64,000 bases of DNA from Escherichia phage pEC-M719-6WT.2: sequence record OQ845958.1. One strand, given 5' to 3'. The notes under the pieces were generated by a model, which saw only the letters and a list, made by a program, of their open reading frames with translations, did no database searches and was not told where the DNA came from. A program made the position numbers and the translations under genes. Below are positions 37,701-48,335 of this stretch, piece after piece. Position 1 is the stretch's first letter. Each line of letters opens with the position of its first letter.

Positions 37701-37926
37701 AGAAATCTTCGTCTTCGTCGTCGTCCATATCCTCAAGCTCGGCGCGTTTACCGGCAAGAGCATCACGAACACTGATATCATCGGAATCTTTTAGTTCAGC
37801 TTCTTTGCTGCGTTTTTTATAATAGCCTTCCAACTCCTTCAGACCGTCCATGGTCTGACAGGAACCAATCTTAGCCATAAAGCCTTCAATTGATGCTTCG
37901 TACATAATTTCTTCGAAGGATTTCAT
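37699..37926 (-). CDS. UvsW.1-like small acidic protein
   Basis: 75 aa directly downstream (minus strand) of the uvsW region, as T4 uvsW.1; acidic C-terminus. No sequence memory to confirm. Confidence 0.5.
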   Translation of the reverse strand: MKSFEEIMYEASIEGFMAKIGSCQTMDGLKELEGYYKKRSKEAELKDSDDISVRDALAGKRAELEDMDDDEDEDF

Positions 37927-38621
37927 TATATTTCCACCTGTTTAATTAAATTTCTGATTTTATATAAAGAAAGCCCCGTTGCTACAGAAGCTTGCTTCAT
38001 CGAACCATATTCAATCCCGTTTAAAACCACTTTCTTAGCGGCAGGATTTTTGGATGGGTCTTTATAACGTTCTTTTGCTTTATCTGAAATTTTCTTTGAT
38101 GCTTCTGGTGTATGTGATTTACCATACATCCAATTACCTTCACCTTTATTTCTTTCAGATATAGCTTGACATTGTGCTTGAGAGTATTTATACGGATTCG
38201 CTTTCTTTGTCGCAGATATTTTATCGGCCCAAGTTATTTTGCGACCCTTCAATAATTGGCTCATATATTCTTTATGTTCTTCAGTATGGTGCTTACCATA
38301 AAAAGGATTACCTTCACCAGTTTGAAGAGCTGACATTTGCCTACGCTCCCATCCATACGATTTATTAAATTGTCGTTGATGTGTCCGAGAGCTCATACCC
38401 ATAGCAATGACGGCCTTTATAAGACCGTAATGATTAGGATGAATTTTGGCCAATAATTTATGTGCAATAAAATGTTCTTCCGGAGTAAGGTTGACTCTGT
38501 TTTCTTGTGTATCAGGTCCACCCATACATTCTGGAATAATATGGTGAGATTCCGTATATCCAATTGGTTTGGAAGCCTTTCGGCTCCCAATTAAATCATC
38601 ATATATTTTTTGATAATTCAA
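37926..38621 (-). CDS. free-standing HNH homing endonuclease (HNH + NUMOD3-like repeats + C-terminal HTH), apparent TTG start
   Basis: 231 aa; ESHHIIPECMGGPDTQENRVNLTPEEHFIAHK; two GEGNxxYGKxHTxExxKxxS repeats; C-terminal GIEYGSMKQASVATGLSLYKIRN. Start/stop overlap uvsW and uvsW.1. Confidence 0.8.
   Translation of the reverse strand: MNYQKIYDDLIGSRKASKPIGYTESHHIIPECMGGPDTQENRVNLTPEEHFIAHKLLAKIHPNHYGLIKAVIAMGMSSRTHQRQFNKSYGWERRQMSALQTGEGNPFYGKHHTEEHKEYMSQLLKGRKITWADKISATKKANPYKYSQAQCQAISERNKGEGNWMYGKSHTPEASKKISDKAKERYKDPSKNPAAKKVVLNGIEYGSMKQASVATGLSLYKIRNLIKQVEI
37930..37948. repeat. 19-bp direct repeat copy 1 (atttccacctgtttaatta), at the 3' end of the HNH gene
   Basis: Exact copy of the sequence at 38622-38640; encodes KQVEI on the minus strand. 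Confidence 0.85.
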
Positions 38622-40117
38622 ATTTCCACCTGTTTAATTACATAGTTAAACCGTTCATCAGCATATCTTTGTATACGTTCAAGGCCATGCTTTAGGGCAA
38701 AGTTCAAATGAACATATTTCTTTTTAGCATTTGCCGATTTAGGTTTAACACCCATATCGTCAACGATATCAAAAACGTTTGCTTGTGATTTGGATTCATG
38801 TTTTCGAAGCACGCGGCCAATTGTCTGGAGTACAATTACCTTTGACTTGACCGGGTGAGCGAAAATAATATGATGGAGGTTTTTAACGGAAATACCCGTC
38901 GAGAATACACCGTATGAAGCTACAACAATAATTCCTTTTCCATTCTCTGCCATGACCTTTAATGCATTACGAGTTTCGGTATCAACTTCCCCGGAAACAT
39001 AATACACTTTCTCATGACCAGCTTCCTTAAGCATTTCAAACATCGATTTGCCATGCTCGATATTCTTAAACATCAAAAAGACGTTTTCATCTTTTTTAGC
39101 AAGCTTGAGAGCAAGATTTGTTACCCATTTATTTCGGCGTGTAGCTTTTGTAATTACCTTAATTTCATCCTGATAAGTTTTACCTTTCATTTTAACGGTA
39201 AATTCATCAGGGTAACGAAGGAAAATACTATTTATTTTAAGGTCAGTAACCTGTCCATCTTCCATCAATTTAGATGTGGATACTGGTTTAAAGATATCAC
39301 CAAACAGACCCATATATTGCATAAGGTTGGCTTTGCCGTCACGGAGTGAACCTGACAAACCAAATTTAAACGTACAATTCGTAAGGCCTTCGATAACCGT
39401 CGAAATTGATTTACCTGTCGCCATATGACATTCGTCATTCATAAACTGGCCAAACTGTTCAAACCATTCTTTAGGTTGTTTTACAGCCGTCTGATAAGTC
39501 GATACATAAATCATCGCATCAGAATCGCGTTTGGTACCAGAACGAATACCCAGACAAGCTTCACGAGGGAACAGACGATAATCAACAAAGTCATTAATCA
39601 TCTGGTCAACGAGCGCAGTTGTAGGAACAAGGATAAGTACTTTGCCTTCATAGTTCTCGAGATAATATCGCGCCAGAAGCGCCTGGATGAGACTTTTACC
39701 TGCAGACGTAGGTAAGTTCAGAATCTTTCTTCTGTTGACCAGACCATCATATACGGCGTCAGATTGATACCAATGGGGAGTTATCTTGGTATTGCCTGAA
39801 TAGATTTCTTTTGACTCGACCCATTTGTCGAATTCTTCGCGAGAGATTTCTTCTTTCTCTGTGATTTGTGGGTCAATCCAGAATGAATAGCCAAACTGGT
39901 CAGCGAACTTTTTAATTTGATTAACCAAACCGTATGGTAATTTACGATTGTAATCCAGGAGGCGGATTCGTCCGTCCCAAACTCCCTGCTTGAATTTTGG
40001 ATTGAAGCGATAGTTTTCAGCTTCGAAGCTGAAGTAATCACGGAGTTCGTAGAAGATTCCATCTTCACATTCAACATGCACGTGACTAAAATTTAGAAAG
40101 TTGATTTTAATATCCAT
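38618..40117 (-). CDS. uvsW: UvsW ATP-dependent DNA/RNA helicase (start at internal ATG; ORF track extends to 40156)
   Basis: About 499 aa from MDIKINF; helicase motifs NLPTSAGKS, DECH, GLSGSLRDGKA; matches T4 UvsW from memory. The ORF-track start lies upstream of the late promoter. Confidence 0.95.
   Translation of the reverse strand: MDIKINFLNFSHVHVECEDGIFYELRDYFSFEAENYRFNPKFKQGVWDGRIRLLDYNRKLPYGLVNQIKKFADQFGYSFWIDPQITEKEEISREEFDKWVESKEIYSGNTKITPHWYQSDAVYDGLVNRRKILNLPTSAGKSLIQALLARYYLENYEGKVLILVPTTALVDQMINDFVDYRLFPREACLGIRSGTKRDSDAMIYVSTYQTAVKQPKEWFEQFGQFMNDECHMATGKSISTVIEGLTNCTFKFGLSGSLRDGKANLMQYMGLFGDIFKPVSTSKLMEDGQVTDLKINSIFLRYPDEFTVKMKGKTYQDEIKVITKATRRNKWVTNLALKLAKKDENVFLMFKNIEHGKSMFEMLKEAGHEKVYYVSGEVDTETRNALKVMAENGKGIIVVASYGVFSTGISVKNLHHIIFAHPVKSKVIVLQTIGRVLRKHESKSQANVFDIVDDMGVKPKSANAKKKYVHLNFALKHGLERIQRYADERFNYVIKQVEI
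38622..38640. repeat. 19-bp direct repeat copy 2 (atttccacctgtttaatta), at the 3' end of uvsW
   Basis: Exact copy; both uvsW and the HNH protein end in the peptide KQVEI followed by stop. Confidence 0.85.
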
Positions 40118-40144
40118 GATGATTCCAAGGTAATAAATATATCT

Positions 40145-40152
40145 ATATTTAT
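40145..40152 (-). promoter_or_regulatory. late promoter (TATAAATA on minus strand) for uvsW
   Basis: Forward TATTTATA about 28 nt upstream of the uvsW ATG. Confidence 0.5.
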
Positions 40153-40171
40153 ACACTAACCGAGGTTCATC

Positions 40172-40846: not shown

Positions 40847-41980
40847 ATGGCTTATACCGTAGCTATTGCTCCTTTGGCGGCTACGGCCGTTATTGGAGCA
40901 ACAACCAATTTCACTGCAACCGGCTCTGGTGCTGCAGCTGAAGGTGTTGAATCATTTGTATGGACCGTTGATGGCGTTCCTCAATCTTCTGTGACTGCAG
41001 CAATGGATTATGTCGCTGTTGGCCCAGCAGGCAGTAAGACTATTAAAGTTGTTGCAACTACCACTCCGGCAGACGGTGAACCGGAAACTGCTGAGGCTGA
41101 GACAACTTTAACTATCCAGAATAAAACAATGCCTGCTATTACATTGACTTTAGACCCTGCCTCTGTTACTAAAGAAGTGGGGCAATCTCAAGTTGTTACT
41201 GCTAACGTGACAGGCGCTCCTTCTGGTGCAACAATCGCTTACGTTTGGAAACGTAACACTAGCGTAATCGCAGGTCAAACTGGTAAAACTATTACCGTCA
41301 CCGAATCAGCAGAAGCAAATTATACATTGAACTGTGAAGTTACTGTTTCTGCACCCGATTATAATAATGGCACCGCATCTAAAGGAGCTGCGGTAACTTT
41401 TGTTAAGAAAACTATGTCGGGTGTTTCTGTTACTTTAGCACCGACCTCTATTAATGTTCCTGAAGGAACTCCGGCTTCTTTTAAAGCTACTGTAGCCGGT
41501 GCGCCTGCTGGTGCTACTTTTGCCTATTCTTGGAAGAAAGATGGTTCACCAGTCGCTGGTACCACGGATACTTTGGCAATCGATACAAGCGCCGAAGGTT
41601 CCCAGTTAATTGAAGTTTCTGTTGTTGTATCTGCTACAGATTATAACCCTGTAACCGTTACCAAAACTGGTAATGTAACAGTCACGGCTAAAGTCGCACC
41701 AGTTCCAGATGGCGAATTACCATATATTCACCCATTGCCAGTACGTAATTCAGCTTATATCTGGTGTGGTTGGTGGGTTATGGATGAAATTCAGAAAATG
41801 ACTCTTGCTGGGCAAGACTGGAAAACTGATGACCCAGATAGCCCGTATTATTTGCACCGATACACACTTCAAAAAATGATTACCGACTATCCAGAGGTTG
41901 ATGTACAAGAATCTCGTAATGGTCGAGTTATTCATCGCACCGCTTTAGAAACTGGTATTATATACGATTACGTTTATTAA
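40847..41980 (+). CDS. hoc: highly immunogenic outer capsid protein Hoc (tandem Ig-like domains)
   Basis: 377 aa (T4 Hoc 376); three repeated about 90-aa Thr/Val-rich Ig-like modules plus C-terminal Trp-rich capsid-binding domain. Confidence 0.8.
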   Translation: MAYTVAIAPLAATAVIGATTNFTATGSGAAAEGVESFVWTVDGVPQSSVTAAMDYVAVGPAGSKTIKVVATTTPADGEPETAEAETTLTIQNKTMPAITLTLDPASVTKEVGQSQVVTANVTGAPSGATIAYVWKRNTSVIAGQTGKTITVTESAEANYTLNCEVTVSAPDYNNGTASKGAAVTFVKKTMSGVSVTLAPTSINVPEGTPASFKATVAGAPAGATFAYSWKKDGSPVAGTTDTLAIDTSAEGSQLIEVSVVVSATDYNPVTVTKTGNVTVTAKVAPVPDGELPYIHPLPVRNSAYIWCGWWVMDEIQKMTLAGQDWKTDDPDSPYYLHRYTLQKMITDYPEVDVQESRNGRVIHRTALETGIIYDYVY

Positions 41981-42010
41981 TTAAAAAGGGACCTTCGGGT
42001 CCCTTTATTT
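41981..42010 (+). terminator. intrinsic terminator (GGGACC-UUCG-GGUCCC + U-tract)
   Basis: aaaagggaccttcgggtccctttatttttatgg. Confidence 0.7.
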
Positions 42011-42147
42011 TTATGGTACTGAGCAAACGTTGCCTGGCCCCTTCTCCGGTAAGTCCTTGTGGTCATACCATAACAATTGTTCATCTGGCATAAAAATCAT
42101 GTTTACAAGTTAAAAATTCCATGTTAAGATAGCTTCACTAACTCAAC

Positions 42148-42351
42148 ATGAGAATCATTATGGATAAGGTTAAAGTACATTTTTTGCATGAATCTGGCAT
42201 GACATTTATTGAAATCGCCAAGGTATTAGGCGGGACTGCTAAAGAGATGGCAAAGGCCTGGGTTGATGTAGAACAAGCCAAAGCTAAATTTAAAGCGAAA
42301 GAAAAGATTGTTTATCGTAAACGTTTGAATAACAAAAAGGTGAAGAAATGA
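42148..42351 (+). CDS. hypothetical small basic protein, possible HTH
   Basis: 67 aa; MTFIEIAKVLGGTAKEMAK helix-turn-helix-like; early-type promoter (GTTTACAA) upstream. Confidence 0.4.
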   Translation: MRIIMDKVKVHFLHESGMTFIEIAKVLGGTAKEMAKAWVDVEQAKAKFKAKEKIVYRKRLNNKKVKK

Positions 42352-42611
42352 CATTCGCAGAAGAACTACGCCAAATAGCCAAAGAGTCACAAGATAAAGT
42401 TGCAAATGACTTTATTTCTATATTTCGCAAAGTGGCTATTGCCGCCGCCGAGAACGGCAAAGATGCTGTTAATATGGCAGTTTCTGAAAAAGAGTATGAA
42501 GAAGGAAACCGCGCAAAGATATCTGAATTTCTGCGAGCAGAAAAATTTACATCTTTTACCTGGAATTATGATTGGCAAGAATCCAAGCCAATGCTGTATG
42601 TAAAATTCTGA
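42348..42611 (+). CDS. hypothetical protein
   Basis: 87-aa ORF overlapping the upstream stop. Confidence 0.4.
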   Translation: MTFAEELRQIAKESQDKVANDFISIFRKVAIAAAENGKDAVNMAVSEKEYEEGNRAKISEFLRAEKFTSFTWNYDWQESKPMLYVKF

Positions 42612-43749: not shown

Positions 43750-43780
43750 AAAAGGGCCACAAGGCCCTTATTCTTTTTCC
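43750..43780. terminator. bidirectional intrinsic terminator (GGGCC-ACAA-GGCCC)
   Basis: Palindromic stem flanked by A-run and T-run, between convergent rnlB (+) and the gene 24 paralog (-). Confidence 0.6.
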
Positions 43781-45051
43781 AGCGGTGGAAGTTTAACACC
43801 AAGATAAGAACTCAATTGACTTTGGTTAGCCATCTTATCCATATCAGCTCCATCAATAAGGCGAGCTTCTTTATCATCTTTAGCAACGGTGTAAGGGTTT
43901 GCAGTCAAAGCATAACGAGCTAACAGTGCAACCGTAGGCTGTAAGCTTTCAGGGTCAACAATAACCTTGAATTCCCCAACCGAGGTATCACCCTCATCAT
44001 CAACTTCGCTAAGCCCTTCCGTATAAGGCGCATAATACAAAGATGCGACCGTCTGACCCTCGCCCATATCCGCATTTACACCAACAATAACATAATCGCA
44101 TGGACTATTCATATCTGCATAAAGAGGCAAACCGTTCTTCAGAACACCATAGGCCAATTCATCCTGGTCTTCCTTTTTCTCAACCCAACCAGAAGCGGCT
44201 AAAATAGCTGCACAACGGGAAGAAGCAACCGCATATGTACCAGCAAATGAAGTCTGACGTTGAACTGCAGAATTCATTTCACACATATAATAATACAGGG
44301 TTCGCGCGCGGTCCTGTGCGTTATCATATTTCGGGTCAGTGAGATTCAACACGCCTTTTTCAGAAACACCTTGTACCTTGAAGCGGGAACTAACAGTAAT
44401 AAGGGATTGCAATACATCCTTATTAATTTCCTCCGCCATTTGAATACCGAGAATATTATCGATGAAGTCTGTTGCATCGAAACCGTTTGCTTCCAGGTCC
44501 TGGGCAAGCTCGACAGTTAAAGAAGTTTTCAACTTTCTGGATTTAACTTCAGTCTGCCATTTATCGATACGGAACCCAGCTTCAGCAATTTCAGGATGCC
44601 CCTTTTCAAATTTATCAGTGAAAGCAGCATCTGACATCATTCTTATATGTCCAGCAGCAATGGCTTCAGAAATAACTTCACCTAAATCAGTTTCGAGTGT
44701 CCCGGCGAATGGTGATGCTTCCAGAACTTTGAATACAACGCTTTCAAACTGAAACATATCGCCGACTGCATAAGCTTCGTCTTTGTTTGTAAATTCTGGA
44801 ATATTCTTACGCTCGAACATACCAATCTGACCTGCAAATGTTGCTCCACCGAGATAAGTCATTTTATCATCTGGGTTCAGAACACGAACACCATACAGGG
44901 CTGCAACAGGCTGGGTAGTTTTCTGTTCGGCCACGAGCGCTTTAAAAATTCGTTTATTCGTAGCCTGAGTATAAGAAAGCAAATTAGGACGGGCGACCTG
45001 GTTGGCCGCCGTTAATGTTGATTCGTGAATTAGTGCATTAATCTTTTGCAT
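43768..45051 (-). CDS. gp24-like capsid vertex protein paralog (second copy)
   Basis: 427 aa; roughly half identical by eye to the adjacent gp24 and to T4 gp24 (KSRKLKTxLTVELAQDLEANGF, EINKDVLQSLITVS). Confidence 0.85.
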   Translation of the reverse strand: MQKINALIHESTLTAANQVARPNLLSYTQATNKRIFKALVAEQKTTQPVAALYGVRVLNPDDKMTYLGGATFAGQIGMFERKNIPEFTNKDEAYAVGDMFQFESVVFKVLEASPFAGTLETDLGEVISEAIAAGHIRMMSDAAFTDKFEKGHPEIAEAGFRIDKWQTEVKSRKLKTSLTVELAQDLEANGFDATDFIDNILGIQMAEEINKDVLQSLITVSSRFKVQGVSEKGVLNLTDPKYDNAQDRARTLYYYMCEMNSAVQRQTSFAGTYAVASSRCAAILAASGWVEKKEDQDELAYGVLKNGLPLYADMNSPCDYVIVGVNADMGEGQTVASLYYAPYTEGLSEVDDEGDTSVGEFKVIVDPESLQPTVALLARYALTANPYTVAKDDKEARLIDGADMDKMANQSQLSSYLGVKLPPLEKE

Positions 45052-46332
45052 TTACGCCTCATAAATGATTGGCGGAAGTTTAACACCGAGCAGATAAGAC
45101 ATATTGCTCTGACCGGCCATTAAATCCATATTGGTTGCATCGATAATACGAGCTTCTTTATCGTCTTTAGCAACGGTGTACGGGTTAGCTGAAAGTGCGT
45201 AACGAACCATCAGAGAGATAGATGGCTGCAAGCTGTCTGGGTCCACAATGACCTTAAACGCACCAACGTGCTCTTCATCATCCAAGTCCAGGCCTTCGGT
45301 ATAAGGAGCATAGAAAATTGAGCCTACGACTTCGTTTCCGCCGTAATTTTCTTTAACACCAACAGTTACATAATCCAATGGACTGTTAACATCACAGAAT
45401 ACAGGGAGGCCATTAATCAAATAACCGTACGCTGTTTCGGGGAGCCACTGTTCGTCTTCTGGCCTGTGTTTCAACCAACCAGAACCGGCCAACATAGCAG
45501 CAACACGGCTAGAGGCAACAACAAAGGTACCGGAATAAGATGTAGTTTTCTGAATTTCGGAGTTCATTTCGCAAACCAGTTCGTACAGTTTACGTGCACC
45601 TTCTGGGGCTGCATCGTATGTTAAATCGATGGTGCCATTGTCAGAAACGCCAGTTACTTTATAACGCTTGGAAACGGTAATAAGAGACTGAAGAACATCT
45701 TTGTTAATTTCATCTGCCATAATAGTGGCAAGCAGGTCTTCTAAGAAAGCAGGAGCATTAAAACCATTTGCTTCCATATCCTGGGCAAGTTCAACAGTTA
45801 ATGCAGTTTTCAATTTACGTGTTTTAACCGGAGCATTCCATTTGTTAACCTGGAATACAGCATTGCTAATTTCAACATCACCGGCTTCGAATTTTTCAGT
45901 GTGTGCGGCATCAGGAACAAGGCGAATAGTCGATGCAATAAGACCTTCTTGCAGAACATCAGATAACACTGTTTCTGTGGTCGATGCAAATGGATTATCA
46001 ACCAGAGCTTTGTAAACGATATTTTGGTATTTTACATATTCGCCTTTAGCCACAGGCTGAGTGGCTGTAGTTAATTCTGGAATAGTTGTGCGGTCTTTAG
46101 AACCGACTTCGCCTCCATAAGTAGCGCCCGTCTGGAAACTGAATTCATTATCAGGAGTAAGATATTTAACACCATACAGTGCAGCAACAGGTTGGTTAGT
46201 ACGTTGTTCAGCGATGATATCGCGGTAAATCAATTTAGTCGTAGCGCGGGTCAAAGCAACAAGATTCGGGCGGCCCAAGGAGTTGCTGGTAGTAATAGTT
46301 GACTCGCGCAGTAATTTGTTAATCTTTGCCAT
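45052..46332 (-). CDS. 24: capsid vertex protein gp24
   Basis: 426 aa; N-terminus MAKINxLLRESTxTxSNSxGRPNLVALTRATTKLIY and much of the body match T4 gp24 from memory. Confidence 0.92.
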   Translation of the reverse strand: MAKINKLLRESTITTSNSLGRPNLVALTRATTKLIYRDIIAEQRTNQPVAALYGVKYLTPDNEFSFQTGATYGGEVGSKDRTTIPELTTATQPVAKGEYVKYQNIVYKALVDNPFASTTETVLSDVLQEGLIASTIRLVPDAAHTEKFEAGDVEISNAVFQVNKWNAPVKTRKLKTALTVELAQDMEANGFNAPAFLEDLLATIMADEINKDVLQSLITVSKRYKVTGVSDNGTIDLTYDAAPEGARKLYELVCEMNSEIQKTTSYSGTFVVASSRVAAMLAGSGWLKHRPEDEQWLPETAYGYLINGLPVFCDVNSPLDYVTVGVKENYGGNEVVGSIFYAPYTEGLDLDDEEHVGAFKVIVDPDSLQPSISLMVRYALSANPYTVAKDDKEARIIDATNMDLMAGQSNMSYLLGVKLPPIIYEA

Positions 46333-46358: not shown

Positions 46359-46366
46359 TATTTATA
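46359..46366 (-). promoter_or_regulatory. late promoter (TATAAATA on minus strand) for gene 24
   Basis: Forward TATTTATA about 25 nt upstream of the gp24 ATG; back-to-back with a plus-strand early promoter. Confidence 0.55.
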
Positions 46367-46443: not shown

Positions 46444-46725
46444 ATGAACAAAGCAACTTTCCTTCTGAACACCTTTAAAAAATTGGAAATTGAAGTTATT
46501 GCATTGGTCAACAAATACCCAAATGGTGTTAATGGTAATGCTCTGAACAAACTAGTTAAAAAATATGAAAACTTAGCATATGACACTGATTTCTGGTGGA
46601 ATGGTAATTATTCTACTCACACTAAAGATAAAAATGGTAACTGGTTGAAACTTCAAGAAAACAATGTTAACTTCAGAGACCTCATCAAGCGCCGGGTAGA
46701 AGTTCATTTAAATGGTATGGTATGA
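46444..46725 (+). CDS. hypothetical early protein inserted between late genes 24 and 23
   Basis: 93-aa ORF on the opposite strand to flanking capsid genes, with its own promoter and terminator. Confidence 0.55.
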   Translation: MNKATFLLNTFKKLEIEVIALVNKYPNGVNGNALNKLVKKYENLAYDTDFWWNGNYSTHTKDKNGNWLKLQENNVNFRDLIKRRVEVHLNGMV

Positions 46726-46730
46726 AAACA

Positions 46731-46766
46731 AGAAAGGGACCTCAAGGGTCCCTTTTTATTTAACTT
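46731..46766. terminator. bidirectional intrinsic terminator (GGGACC-UCAA-GGGUCCC)
   Basis: aagaaagggacctcaagggtccctttttattt; serves ORF 46444 (+) and gene 23 (-). Confidence 0.65.
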
Positions 46767-46775
46767 AATCTAGGA

Positions 46776-48335
46776 TTAAATTCCTTTAACATATACGCGG
46801 CGGAAGTAACCGTTCAAGCCGAGGCTGTTAACGATGTCCGGCATGCCATTCTGGATGCGCTTGGCCGGAGCCTGAGCTACCGGGTCAGCGAACGGGTTAA
46901 TACCGATACCGTAACGGGTTTTGAAGCCCATAACCGGCTGGAAGTTTTTCGGGTCAGAGCCACGCAGCGGGGTCAGTGCAACATATGGTGCGTAGTAGAT
47001 ACCAGCATCCATTTCGTTAGCGCCTTTGTAACCGATGGTGAAATAGTCTGCACGAGCATACTGGTCGATGTATACACGGTATTTGCCACCCAGAACACCA
47101 GCGAACACAGCTTTAGTGGTGTCAACGTTGAAACCTTTACCCAGACCCTGAGCAGCATAAGATACGGAGGTATCAACTGCAGCCAGTACGTTAACTACGT
47201 TACGGGAAGCGATGATGAAGTTACCTGCACCACGGCCAGTCTGACGAGCGATTTCAGCGGCTTCTTTATCAATCTGGAACAGTAAAGCTTTGAAGCTTTC
47301 ACCAGCCCAACGAGCGCCACGGATATCAATCGGGTCCTGGAAGTCAAACACACCAGCTTTAGCGCCAACGGTGTTGGTCATACCAGATTTACCAACCTGT
47401 GCGGAGTAGTTAATCCAATCGATAACTTCGCGGTTGATTTCCAGCATAATTTCGGTAGCCAGAATACCACTCAATTCGGCATCAGCATCCATACCATGAA
47501 CAGCGCGCAGGTCCTGTGCCAGTTCGATGGAGTAACTTGCTTTCAGCTGGCGGGATTTAGCTTCGATAACTTGTTTATCGATACGGAAGCCCATTTCGTT
47601 CCACGGGTTATCAGTAGAACCGTTGAAGCCTTCCTGCAATTCGGCGATAGAGGTAGCCATACCTTCAGCGATTTCGGCCAGCTTACCAGCTTCGAGCAGT
47701 TTGGTAACTTCGGCGTCAAGTTTAGCGGCATCAGTAGCAGCAGCATCAACGGTTACAGCTTCAACAGCCTGGAAGTGCGCGGCACCGGTTGCTTCGAAGA
47801 AGTGAGAATAAATTTTACCAACGGTAAGAACTTTGCTTGCAGCCAGAGCTTCGAAAGCCTCAGCAGCGCCCTGACCAGAGAACATAGCATTTGGAGCATA
47901 CATCGGGTGGAAAGCTTCTTTAGCACCTGCAGCTACAGGGTCTTTACCGTAAACTGCACGCAGGGCAAATACCTGGCCAGTCGGGTTGTTCAGAGGCTGT
48001 ACGCCACAAATATCAAACGCAATCAGATGCGGGATAGCACGACGAACCATGCCCATAACTGCCGGCCCAATCTGAGTTACTGCACCAGAGGTCTGGCCAG
48101 CAGCGATATTGGTAGCATCATAACCATGGTCACCACCGATTTCAGCTTCGGTCAGGAAAGAACCAAATGCTTCGGAGATTTTTTCGTCACGGTATTCAGG
48201 AGCGGTCAGAATATCTTGTTCCTGGTTTTCAAAGATTTTAGCGATGATAGCTTGTTTGGAAGCACCAACGATTTCCGGAAGAGCTTCGTTTTCCAGCAGA
48301 GCGGACCATTTTTGAACTAATGCATTCTTTTTCAT
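46776..48335 (-). CDS. 23: major capsid protein gp23
   Basis: 519 aa; long stretches match T4 gp23 from memory (e.g. SFLTEAEIGGDHGY, NPWNEMGFRIDKQVIEAKSRQLKA, C-terminal FRRVYVKGI). Confidence 0.98.
   Translation of the reverse strand: MKKNALVQKWSALLENEALPEIVGASKQAIIAKIFENQEQDILTAPEYRDEKISEAFGSFLTEAEIGGDHGYDATNIAAGQTSGAVTQIGPAVMGMVRRAIPHLIAFDICGVQPLNNPTGQVFALRAVYGKDPVAAGAKEAFHPMYAPNAMFSGQGAAEAFEALAASKVLTVGKIYSHFFEATGAAHFQAVEAVTVDAAATDAAKLDAEVTKLLEAGKLAEIAEGMATSIAELQEGFNGSTDNPWNEMGFRIDKQVIEAKSRQLKASYSIELAQDLRAVHGMDADAELSGILATEIMLEINREVIDWINYSAQVGKSGMTNTVGAKAGVFDFQDPIDIRGARWAGESFKALLFQIDKEAAEIARQTGRGAGNFIIASRNVVNVLAAVDTSVSYAAQGLGKGFNVDTTKAVFAGVLGGKYRVYIDQYARADYFTIGYKGANEMDAGIYYAPYVALTPLRGSDPKNFQPVMGFKTRYGIGINPFADPVAQAPAKRIQNGMPDIVNSLGLNGYFRRVYVKGI

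Follow-up and report, generated by a model that had tools for sequence, protein, structure and literature searches.

The head of phage T4 carries pentamers of gp24, the product of a single gene 24, at its 11 non-portal vertices, and gp24 is a textbook example of a capsid-protein duplicate that became specialised for the fivefold positions of a shell. In Escherichia phage pEC-M719-6WT.2 (record OQ845958.1), a stretch of 64,000 nucleotides (nt), referred to here as the window, contains two genes of this kind in tandem, which raises the question of whether the second is a dispensable repeat of the first or a vertex protein with a history and a place of its own. A first-pass annotation, made from the letters of the window alone, had described the two open reading frames (ORFs) as diverged gene 24 paralogues and had suggested that the extra copy could supply an alternative vertex subunit or serve in a decoration-like role. 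The genes are called 24a (the canonical copy) and 24b in what follows. The reading preferred here, with a probability of roughly 0.6, is that they encode two functional vertex subunits that are made together, and that 24b represents an old lineage. A late promoter, 24a, 24b and a terminator would form a two-gene late unit encoding two functional paralogues of the T4 vertex (penton) protein; both proteins would be made late and together, both would probably be trimmed after Glu10 by the prohead protease gp21, and both would probably be incorporated in the shell at fivefold vertices. There the two would probably find themselves in environments that are not equivalent, whether on distinct classes of the 11 non-portal vertices of the prolate head or at different positions within mixed pentamers.

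Both ORFs are found where the first-pass annotation had placed them, adjoining one another on the minus strand at the end of a cluster of head genes with the order g20-67-68-21-22-23-24a-24b (Table 1). BLASTP aligns the two proteins over their full length at 55% identity and 75% positives, with 10 gaps and an expectation value (E) of 1e-173, a similarity that is far above chance. Two of the three sequence blocks that had been quoted as common to the pair, EINKDVLQSLITVS and ANPYTVAKDDKEAR, are present in both copies; the third, KSRKLKT.LTVELAQD.EANGF, is exact in 24b alone, 24a having KTRKLKTALTVELAQDMEANGF, with one S/T difference. Family PF07068 (Gp23) is matched by 24a at 329.4 bits and by 24b at 327.5 bits, the curated cut-off being 24.4, and the T4 gp24 structure in the PDB (1yue) is matched from end to end by both, at 647.7 and 497 bits, respectively. 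With identities to T4 gp24 of 69% for 24a and 56% for 24b, it is indeed the ORF at 45052-46332 that lies closer to the T4 protein, as had been claimed, and only one gene 24 was found in T4, again as claimed. Gp23, the major capsid protein, is a more distant paralogue of both, aligning with either at about 28% identity over some 250-280 amino acids (aa), and the gp23 chains in the PDB reach just 44-51 bits against 24a and 24b, over residues ~156-393 only.

Table 1. Coordinates of the gene pair, the gene upstream of it and the putative expression signals in the window (a slash in a protein sequence marks the predicted Glu10-Ser11 processing site).
Feature	Position	Strand	Description
Gene 24a	45052..46332	-	426 aa; orthologue of T4 gp24 capsid vertex protein; N-terminus MAKINKLLRE/STITT
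Gene 24b	43768..45051	-	427 aa; the other gp24-family protein, from a conserved paralogue lineage distinct from that of 24a; N-terminus MQKINALIHE/STLTA
Gene 23	46776..48335	-	Major capsid protein; more distant paralogue of 24a and 24b
Late promoter motif, T4-type	46359..46366	-	TATAAATA, upstream of 24a and 27 nt from its start codon
Shine-Dalgarno motif of 24b	45057..45060	-	GAGG, inside the last 24a codons, 5 nt before the 24b ATG
Intrinsic-terminator hairpin after 24b	43752..43769		Bidirectional; GC-rich AAGGGCCTTGTGGCCCTT and then a run of T
Terminator hairpin after gene 23	46733..46755	-	Sets the 24a-24b unit apart from the gene 23 transcript

As an observation, the gene pair is already known from the public annotation of Gaprivervirus, Dhakavirus and Gelderlandvirus genomes. 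The locus is 98.6% identical to those of Escherichia phages TH22 and UPEC07 and 89.5% identical to that of vB_EcoM-VR7; UPEC07 is classified in Gaprivervirus, which is also the genus of the phage from which the window comes. The RefSeq record of vB_EcoM-VR7 names the two genes 24(1) and 24(2), the records of VR20, VR25 and VR26 list a capsid vertex protein I and II, and Dhakavirus Bp7 and Gelderlandvirus SEA1 have the same pair as two 'head vertex protein' genes. In all of these phages the two genes, their order and their orientation are those of the window, with no essential difference, the copies being 97% and 98% identical to the window's in VR7, 89% and 90% in Bp7, and 85% and 84% in SEA1. 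A 24b orthologue at 80% identity or more is present in at least 93 phage records. What the present analysis adds to this annotation is the age of 24b, the equal constraint on the two genes, the constant place of 24b downstream of gene 24, and the possibility that the T4 copy number is derived; no unusual mechanism is shown by the present evidence.

Two adjoining genes of near-equal length that are homologous throughout invite the explanation of a recent tandem duplication in place, followed by fast divergence of the downstream copy, and a local duplication followed by divergence is what the first-pass annotation had implied. Pairwise identities already contradict it, in that 24a is 69% identical to T4 gp24 against 55% to its own neighbour, and the single gp24 of Jiaodavirus is 64% identical to 24a and 63% to 24b. 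A four-point additive test on identity distances rejects a pairing of 24a with 24b and fits 24a with T4, with 24b branching apart. Trees were built by neighbour-joining on distances and rooted with gp23. They unite the 24a genes with those of T4, Mosigvirus and Karamvirus (88% bootstrap) and set the 24b genes apart as a clade of their own. A search of a large protein collection added 24b-like proteins at 90, 84, 81-77 and 69-66% identity, one of them from Erwinia phage FBB1. With these included, 86-100% of replicates recover a monophyletic b clade and 100% place it inside the Tevenvirinae/Twarogvirinae radiation, and under p, Kimura and gamma distances alike it is sister to its own a partner in 0/200. 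A phylogeny of gp23 and gp24 homologues had been proposed as a check on the paralogy, and its outcome is that 24b is not the sister of 24a. Present-day nonsynonymous divergence (dN) is, furthermore, equal in both copies (window against Bp7: a near-equal 0.080 for 24a and 0.075 for 24b), and the longest nucleotide run that the copies share is 17 nt, which leaves no sign of recent gene conversion between them. A recent duplication is, in light of these results, scarcely credible, and 24b appears instead to be an old, separately evolving gp24 lineage. The first-pass interpretation thus survives in recognising two intact gp24-family paralogues, 24a being the orthologue of T4 gp24, and fails in its picture of a local duplication, because the lineage of 24b is old and separate and in no replicate groups as the sister of the neighbouring gene.

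A related pattern was seen within single-copy proteins. The gene 24 of Jiaodavirus JIPh_Kp122 (L003:4001-5281) is mosaic in a sliding-window comparison, residues 1-60 and 301-426 of its product being nearer to canonical gp24 (72-90% identity, vs 53-68% to the b clade) and residues 101-160 and 221-300 nearer to the b clade (55-68% vs 38-58%), and the gp24 proteins of Tegunavirus, Acinetobacter and Serratia phages show a weaker form of the same mosaic. Such patterns may record old recombination between an a and a b gene before the loss of one copy, or differences in rate between regions of the protein; as region-specific rates explain the mosaic equally well, the Jiaodavirus gene is no more than a possible a/b chimera.

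The age of the b lineage bears on how the pair arose. Fourteen loci were examined, comprising the window, VR7, SEA1, Bp7 and ten metagenomic contigs that together span all b subclades. The order gene 23, canonical gene 24 (~426 aa), b gene holds in 14/14, and the stop codon of 24a abuts or overlaps the start codon of 24b (-4 to +2 nt) in every one of them, including those whose b genes are only 66-69% identical to the 24b of the window. A search among the deepest b-type proteins for a genome that has the b gene without 24a came up empty. Phages with two copies and phages with one are intermixed on the gp23 tree: contig L020, with two copies, is sister to Jiaodavirus, with one, at 100%; Dhakavirus and Gaprivervirus, with two, group with T4 and Mosigvirus, with one, at 64%; and the deepest branch consists of the contigs that bear the deepest b genes. 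The favoured origin, judged from these patterns, would be a tandem duplication that predates the Tevenvirinae gp24 radiation, followed by loss of 24b in several lineages, for which T4/Mosigvirus, Karamvirus and Jiaodavirus are the presumed cases, and the single gene 24 of T4 may accordingly be the derived state.

A different origin would see 24b acquired horizontally from a deep-branching T4-like lineage, inserted beside a resident gene 24 and then spread, alone or together with its partner, among Tevenvirinae by recombination. Such a course is compatible with the interleaving on the gp23 tree, with a b lineage that branches close to the base of the Tevenvirinae/Twarogvirinae gp24 radiation and in no replicate pairs with its a partner, and with the scatter of a partners over different canonical subclades that is seen for several b genes. 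The constancy of the locus argues the other way, since 24a stands upstream in all 14 loci, no b-only genome came to light in the search just described, and neither position nor stop/start coupling varies within the b lineage. Composition gives no sign of foreign origin in the 24a/24b comparison (GC content 0.433 vs 0.429, GC at third codon positions alike, codon usage correlated at r = 0.89), and the deep b subclade and the deep gp23 subclade occur on the same contigs, as vertical descent predicts. Horizontal acquisition is consequently regarded as unlikely, if far from negligible; it concerns the origin only and would leave 24b a functional second vertex protein all the same.

Whatever its origin, 24b bears the marks of a gene in use. 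Ratios of nonsynonymous to synonymous substitution (dN/dS; Nei-Gojobori estimates for the window against VR7, Bp7 and SEA1) are 0.04-0.075 for 24a, 0.03-0.06 for 24b and 0.04-0.15 for gene 23, and purifying selection is equally strong on the two gene 24 copies; synonymous sites are near or at saturation between genera (dS 1.1-2.8), and the value for 24b against SEA1 is not estimable. It is very probable that both genes are functional. The notion that 24b is a spare copy, redundant or in decay and without a function of its own, may appeal to the circumstance that T4 and many of its relatives manage with one gene 24, and it fits poorly with the other evidence: all loci examined have an intact frame, dN/dS is as low as just given while synonymous sites approach saturation, the protease site (see below) is conserved, and the gene is retained, always coupled to 24a, down to 66-69% identity. 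Disabling mutations in one copy had been named in advance as evidence that would speak against two working genes, and both frames proved intact and under purifying selection; pseudogenisation of 24b is ruled out by dN/dS and conservation. Phage TH57, which matches over only 90% of the query, was considered as a candidate for natural loss of one copy within the genus, and it has both genes whole, a deletion of ~364 base pairs (bp) having taken out the small ORF between genes 23 and 24a. That this deletion removed an adjoining ORF and spared both gp24 genes is a further point against a spare copy, an explanation to which very little credence is given.

The signals around the pair point to joint expression. 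From gene 23 to the end of 24b, the minus strand has no TATAAATA motif other than the one ahead of 24a, and the ribosome-binding site AAAGGAAAG lies between this one and the 24a start. In the window as a whole the motif occurs 20 times vs 4.07 expected; 16 of the 20 copies are on the minus strand, mostly ahead of structural genes at 46-60 kb, and their strand and placement match what would be expected of T4-type late promoters. Gene 24a ends in GAG GCG TAA (stop 45054-45052), directly followed by the ATG of 24b (45051-45049). The hairpin downstream of 24b closes the unit and is common to the convergent rnlB gene. From this arrangement, 24a and 24b are predicted to form one late transcription unit, within which translational coupling of 24b to 24a is likely because the stop of the one and the start of the other abut.

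VR-type Gapriverviruses have been described as low-temperature phages, and it might be supposed that 24b is a conditional vertex subunit that replaces 24a under, for example, low temperature or in a particular host. A single transcription unit with an abutting stop and start counts against conditional use of either copy, 24b having no promoter of its own, being predicted to be co-transcribed with 24a and starting where 24a stops; the pair is, in addition, kept in Dhakavirus, Gelderlandvirus and several metagenomic lineages. A conditional role is for these reasons considered quite improbable.

The preferred reading, that both proteins are vertex subunits, draws on the features that 24b has in common with T4 gp24 (1YUE; 5VF3 chain a; PF07068), namely end-to-end alignment, length, a place after gene 23, the Glu10-Ser11 motif of a putative processing site, which is present in 24a and 24b alike, and the same predicted fold; one difference is that of number, T4 having one copy and the phage of the window two. 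All 54 gp24 sequences compared, of either type, have Glu10 and Ser11, the junction reading LRE/S in 24a and IHE/S in 24b. The T4 head review describes the removal of 10 N-terminal residues from gp24 by the prohead protease gp21 (PMC9958956), and the mature T4 chain 5vf3_a begins at residue 11. The two mature proteins of the window would have masses of 45.4 and 45.7 kDa, too similar to be told apart by gels alone. An AlphaFold2 model of 24b, with a mean predicted local distance difference test score (pLDDT) of 69 and low values in residues 1-33 and 348-372, has T4 gp24 (5vf3_a) as its best Foldseek match (E 2.3e-51, template-modelling (TM) score 0.79-0.81), vs ~0.6 for gp23. On the strength of this model, 24b is predicted to have the HK97-type fold of gp24.

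Against this shared architecture, the positions at which 24b departs from canonical gp24 are unevenly spread (regions are given in T4 residue numbering). A set of 15 single-copy gp24 proteins defines 215 positions with a conservation of at least 85%, and of these the a partners retain 194 and the b clade 159. At 29 otherwise conserved positions b differs from all single-copy gp24 proteins, 13 of them at residues 9-72, four at 351-356 and three at 414-422. Residues 351-356 lie in an acidic loop, DLDDPEH, at which the b proteins have a 3-residue insertion; in all, two 3-residue insertions, near residues 238 and 349, and one 4-residue deletion set 24b apart from single-copy gp24. The changes specific to 24b cluster in the N-terminal arm (N-arm), the acidic loop and the C-terminus. 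Ten positions are diagnostic of the clade when 21 b and 33 canonical sequences are compared (A26S, T32N, L34R, Y36F, K56R, Y57V, T204I, P244Q, E335Q and L415Y), and the 24b of the window carries them. The a and b proteins are least alike at residues 61-136, where identity drops to 27-43%. When expansion takes place in T4, the N-terminal arm of gp24* moves to the outer surface, and it binds adjacent subunits (PMC9958956). Read against the T4 protein, 24b would have kept the shell-forming core and changed the parts that contact neighbours, which is as expected if the environment of 24b differs from that of 24a.

The same changes could be taken to place 24b off the vertex, as a decoration or cementing protein, as the occupant of a special shell position near the portal, or as an assembly factor confined to the prohead. 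Their clustering in the arm that contacts neighbours in T4, in the acidic loop and in the C-terminal tail lends this idea some substance, as does the low identity of a to b over residues 61-136. Weighing more heavily are the complete gp24 architecture and length of 24b, with 159 of the 215 conserved positions, the identification of gp24 as the best fold match of its model, and its propeptide, which is the short one of 10 residues found in gp24 and not that of gp23; the T4 decoration proteins Soc and Hoc are, moreover, unrelated in fold (PMC9958956). An off-vertex role is held to be improbable. The decoration-like role, which the first-pass annotation had offered as one of two options, is unlikely specifically because 24b keeps the whole shell-forming architecture and is best matched by T4 gp24. 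The other option, an alternative or additional vertex subunit, is plausible, given the gp24 fold, the conserved protease site, the strong constraint and the co-expression with 24a. That both proteins are components of the virion's vertices is, on balance, the better bet.

Several considerations weigh against this assessment. T4 makes a stable capsid with one gp24, and a second gp24 is therefore not structurally required. The canonical gp24 proteins are monophyletic with only 14-66% support, such that the exact basal placement of the b lineage is weakly supported, and all trees are distance-based and built by neighbour-joining. The phylogenies of the a and b copies are partly incongruent, as seen with contigs c80268 and c20182 and with FBB1, and recombination or transfer has therefore played some part. 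Confidence in the 24b model is moderate and is low exactly in the N-arm and the 348-372 loop. The PDB match search returned capsid structures from T4 only and none from a phage with two gp24 proteins, and no paper that discusses or tests a second gene 24 was found in the searchable full-text literature.

A precedent for two related subunits in one head exists in T4 itself, in which gp23 and gp24 represent a capsid duplicate that was retained through specialising for another geometric position in the same shell (PMC9958956). The parallel has its limits, as T4 gp23 and gp24 are ~20-28% identical and unlike in length and propeptide, whereas 24a and 24b share 55% identity and a similar architecture. 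By analogy, 24a and 24b may stem from a second round of the same kind of process, the positional specialisation being hypothetical. A bolder possibility is that the ancestral Tevenvirinae head had two specialised pentons and that T4 was simplified secondarily, with 24a and 24b on non-equivalent vertices or in defined mixed pentamers. The vertex classes, in that event, might be the apical vertex and the ten shoulder vertices, or those of the portal-side cap and the distal cap, and the changes specific to 24b in the N-arm and loop would encode the positional choice. This elaboration is put forward as a tentative and rather unlikely idea.

The wider interest of the pair lies in its persistence. 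The 24b lineage has been kept from phages of E. coli, Salmonella and Erwinia to uncultured relatives, always coupled to a canonical copy, and under equal constraint, and this retention suggests that three shell paralogues, and not two, go into many T4-like heads, T4 being perhaps the simplified case. Should the two proteins prove to occupy different vertex classes, they would constitute a natural system for learning how a prolate capsid distinguishes non-equivalent corners. On the practical side, Gaprivervirus, Dhakavirus and Gelderlandvirus phages are widely used therapeutically, and T4-type heads serve as platforms for display and delivery.

Some observations on neighbouring genes may be added. 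Between gene 23 and 24a lies an ORF of 93 aa (46444-46725, plus strand), which matches phrog_6003 (unknown function) at E 8.9e-47 and gave no Pfam hit; it is the ORF removed by the deletion in TH57. The record of phage EAWsc9 labels what is probably the same ORF 'glycosyl hydrolase family 25', and nothing found here supports that label. In T4 this position is taken by homing endonuclease genes of the segD type. The deepest two-copy contigs, which resemble Erwinia phage FBB1, have two more genes in the same orientation after 24b, of ~332-352 aa and ~165-279 aa (L015:2676-4506, L016:4890-6427, L017:5345-6900, L018:5326-6841 and L022:2634-4140); these have no counterpart in the window, one gave a faint collagen-repeat hit, and they may be additional head or decoration genes.

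Farther from the pair, the hoc region of the window (40847-42611) is unlike that of VR7 (L001:1-3406) despite the close kinship of the two phages: the window has one Hoc-like gene of 377 aa followed by homologues of 24.3 and 24.2, and VR7 has hoc, a second Hoc-like gene and, on the other strand, a collagen-repeat 'tail fiber' gene. A homing endonuclease of 231 aa with a TTG start is encoded at 37926-38621 on the minus strand; it contains two NUMOD3 motifs and matches phrog_655 at E 6.4e-57. Its gene overlaps by 4 nt the end of a 512-aa ORF (38618-40156) that occupies the position of the T4 uvsW helicase gene, and it has the look of a mobile element inserted at the ORF's 3' end.

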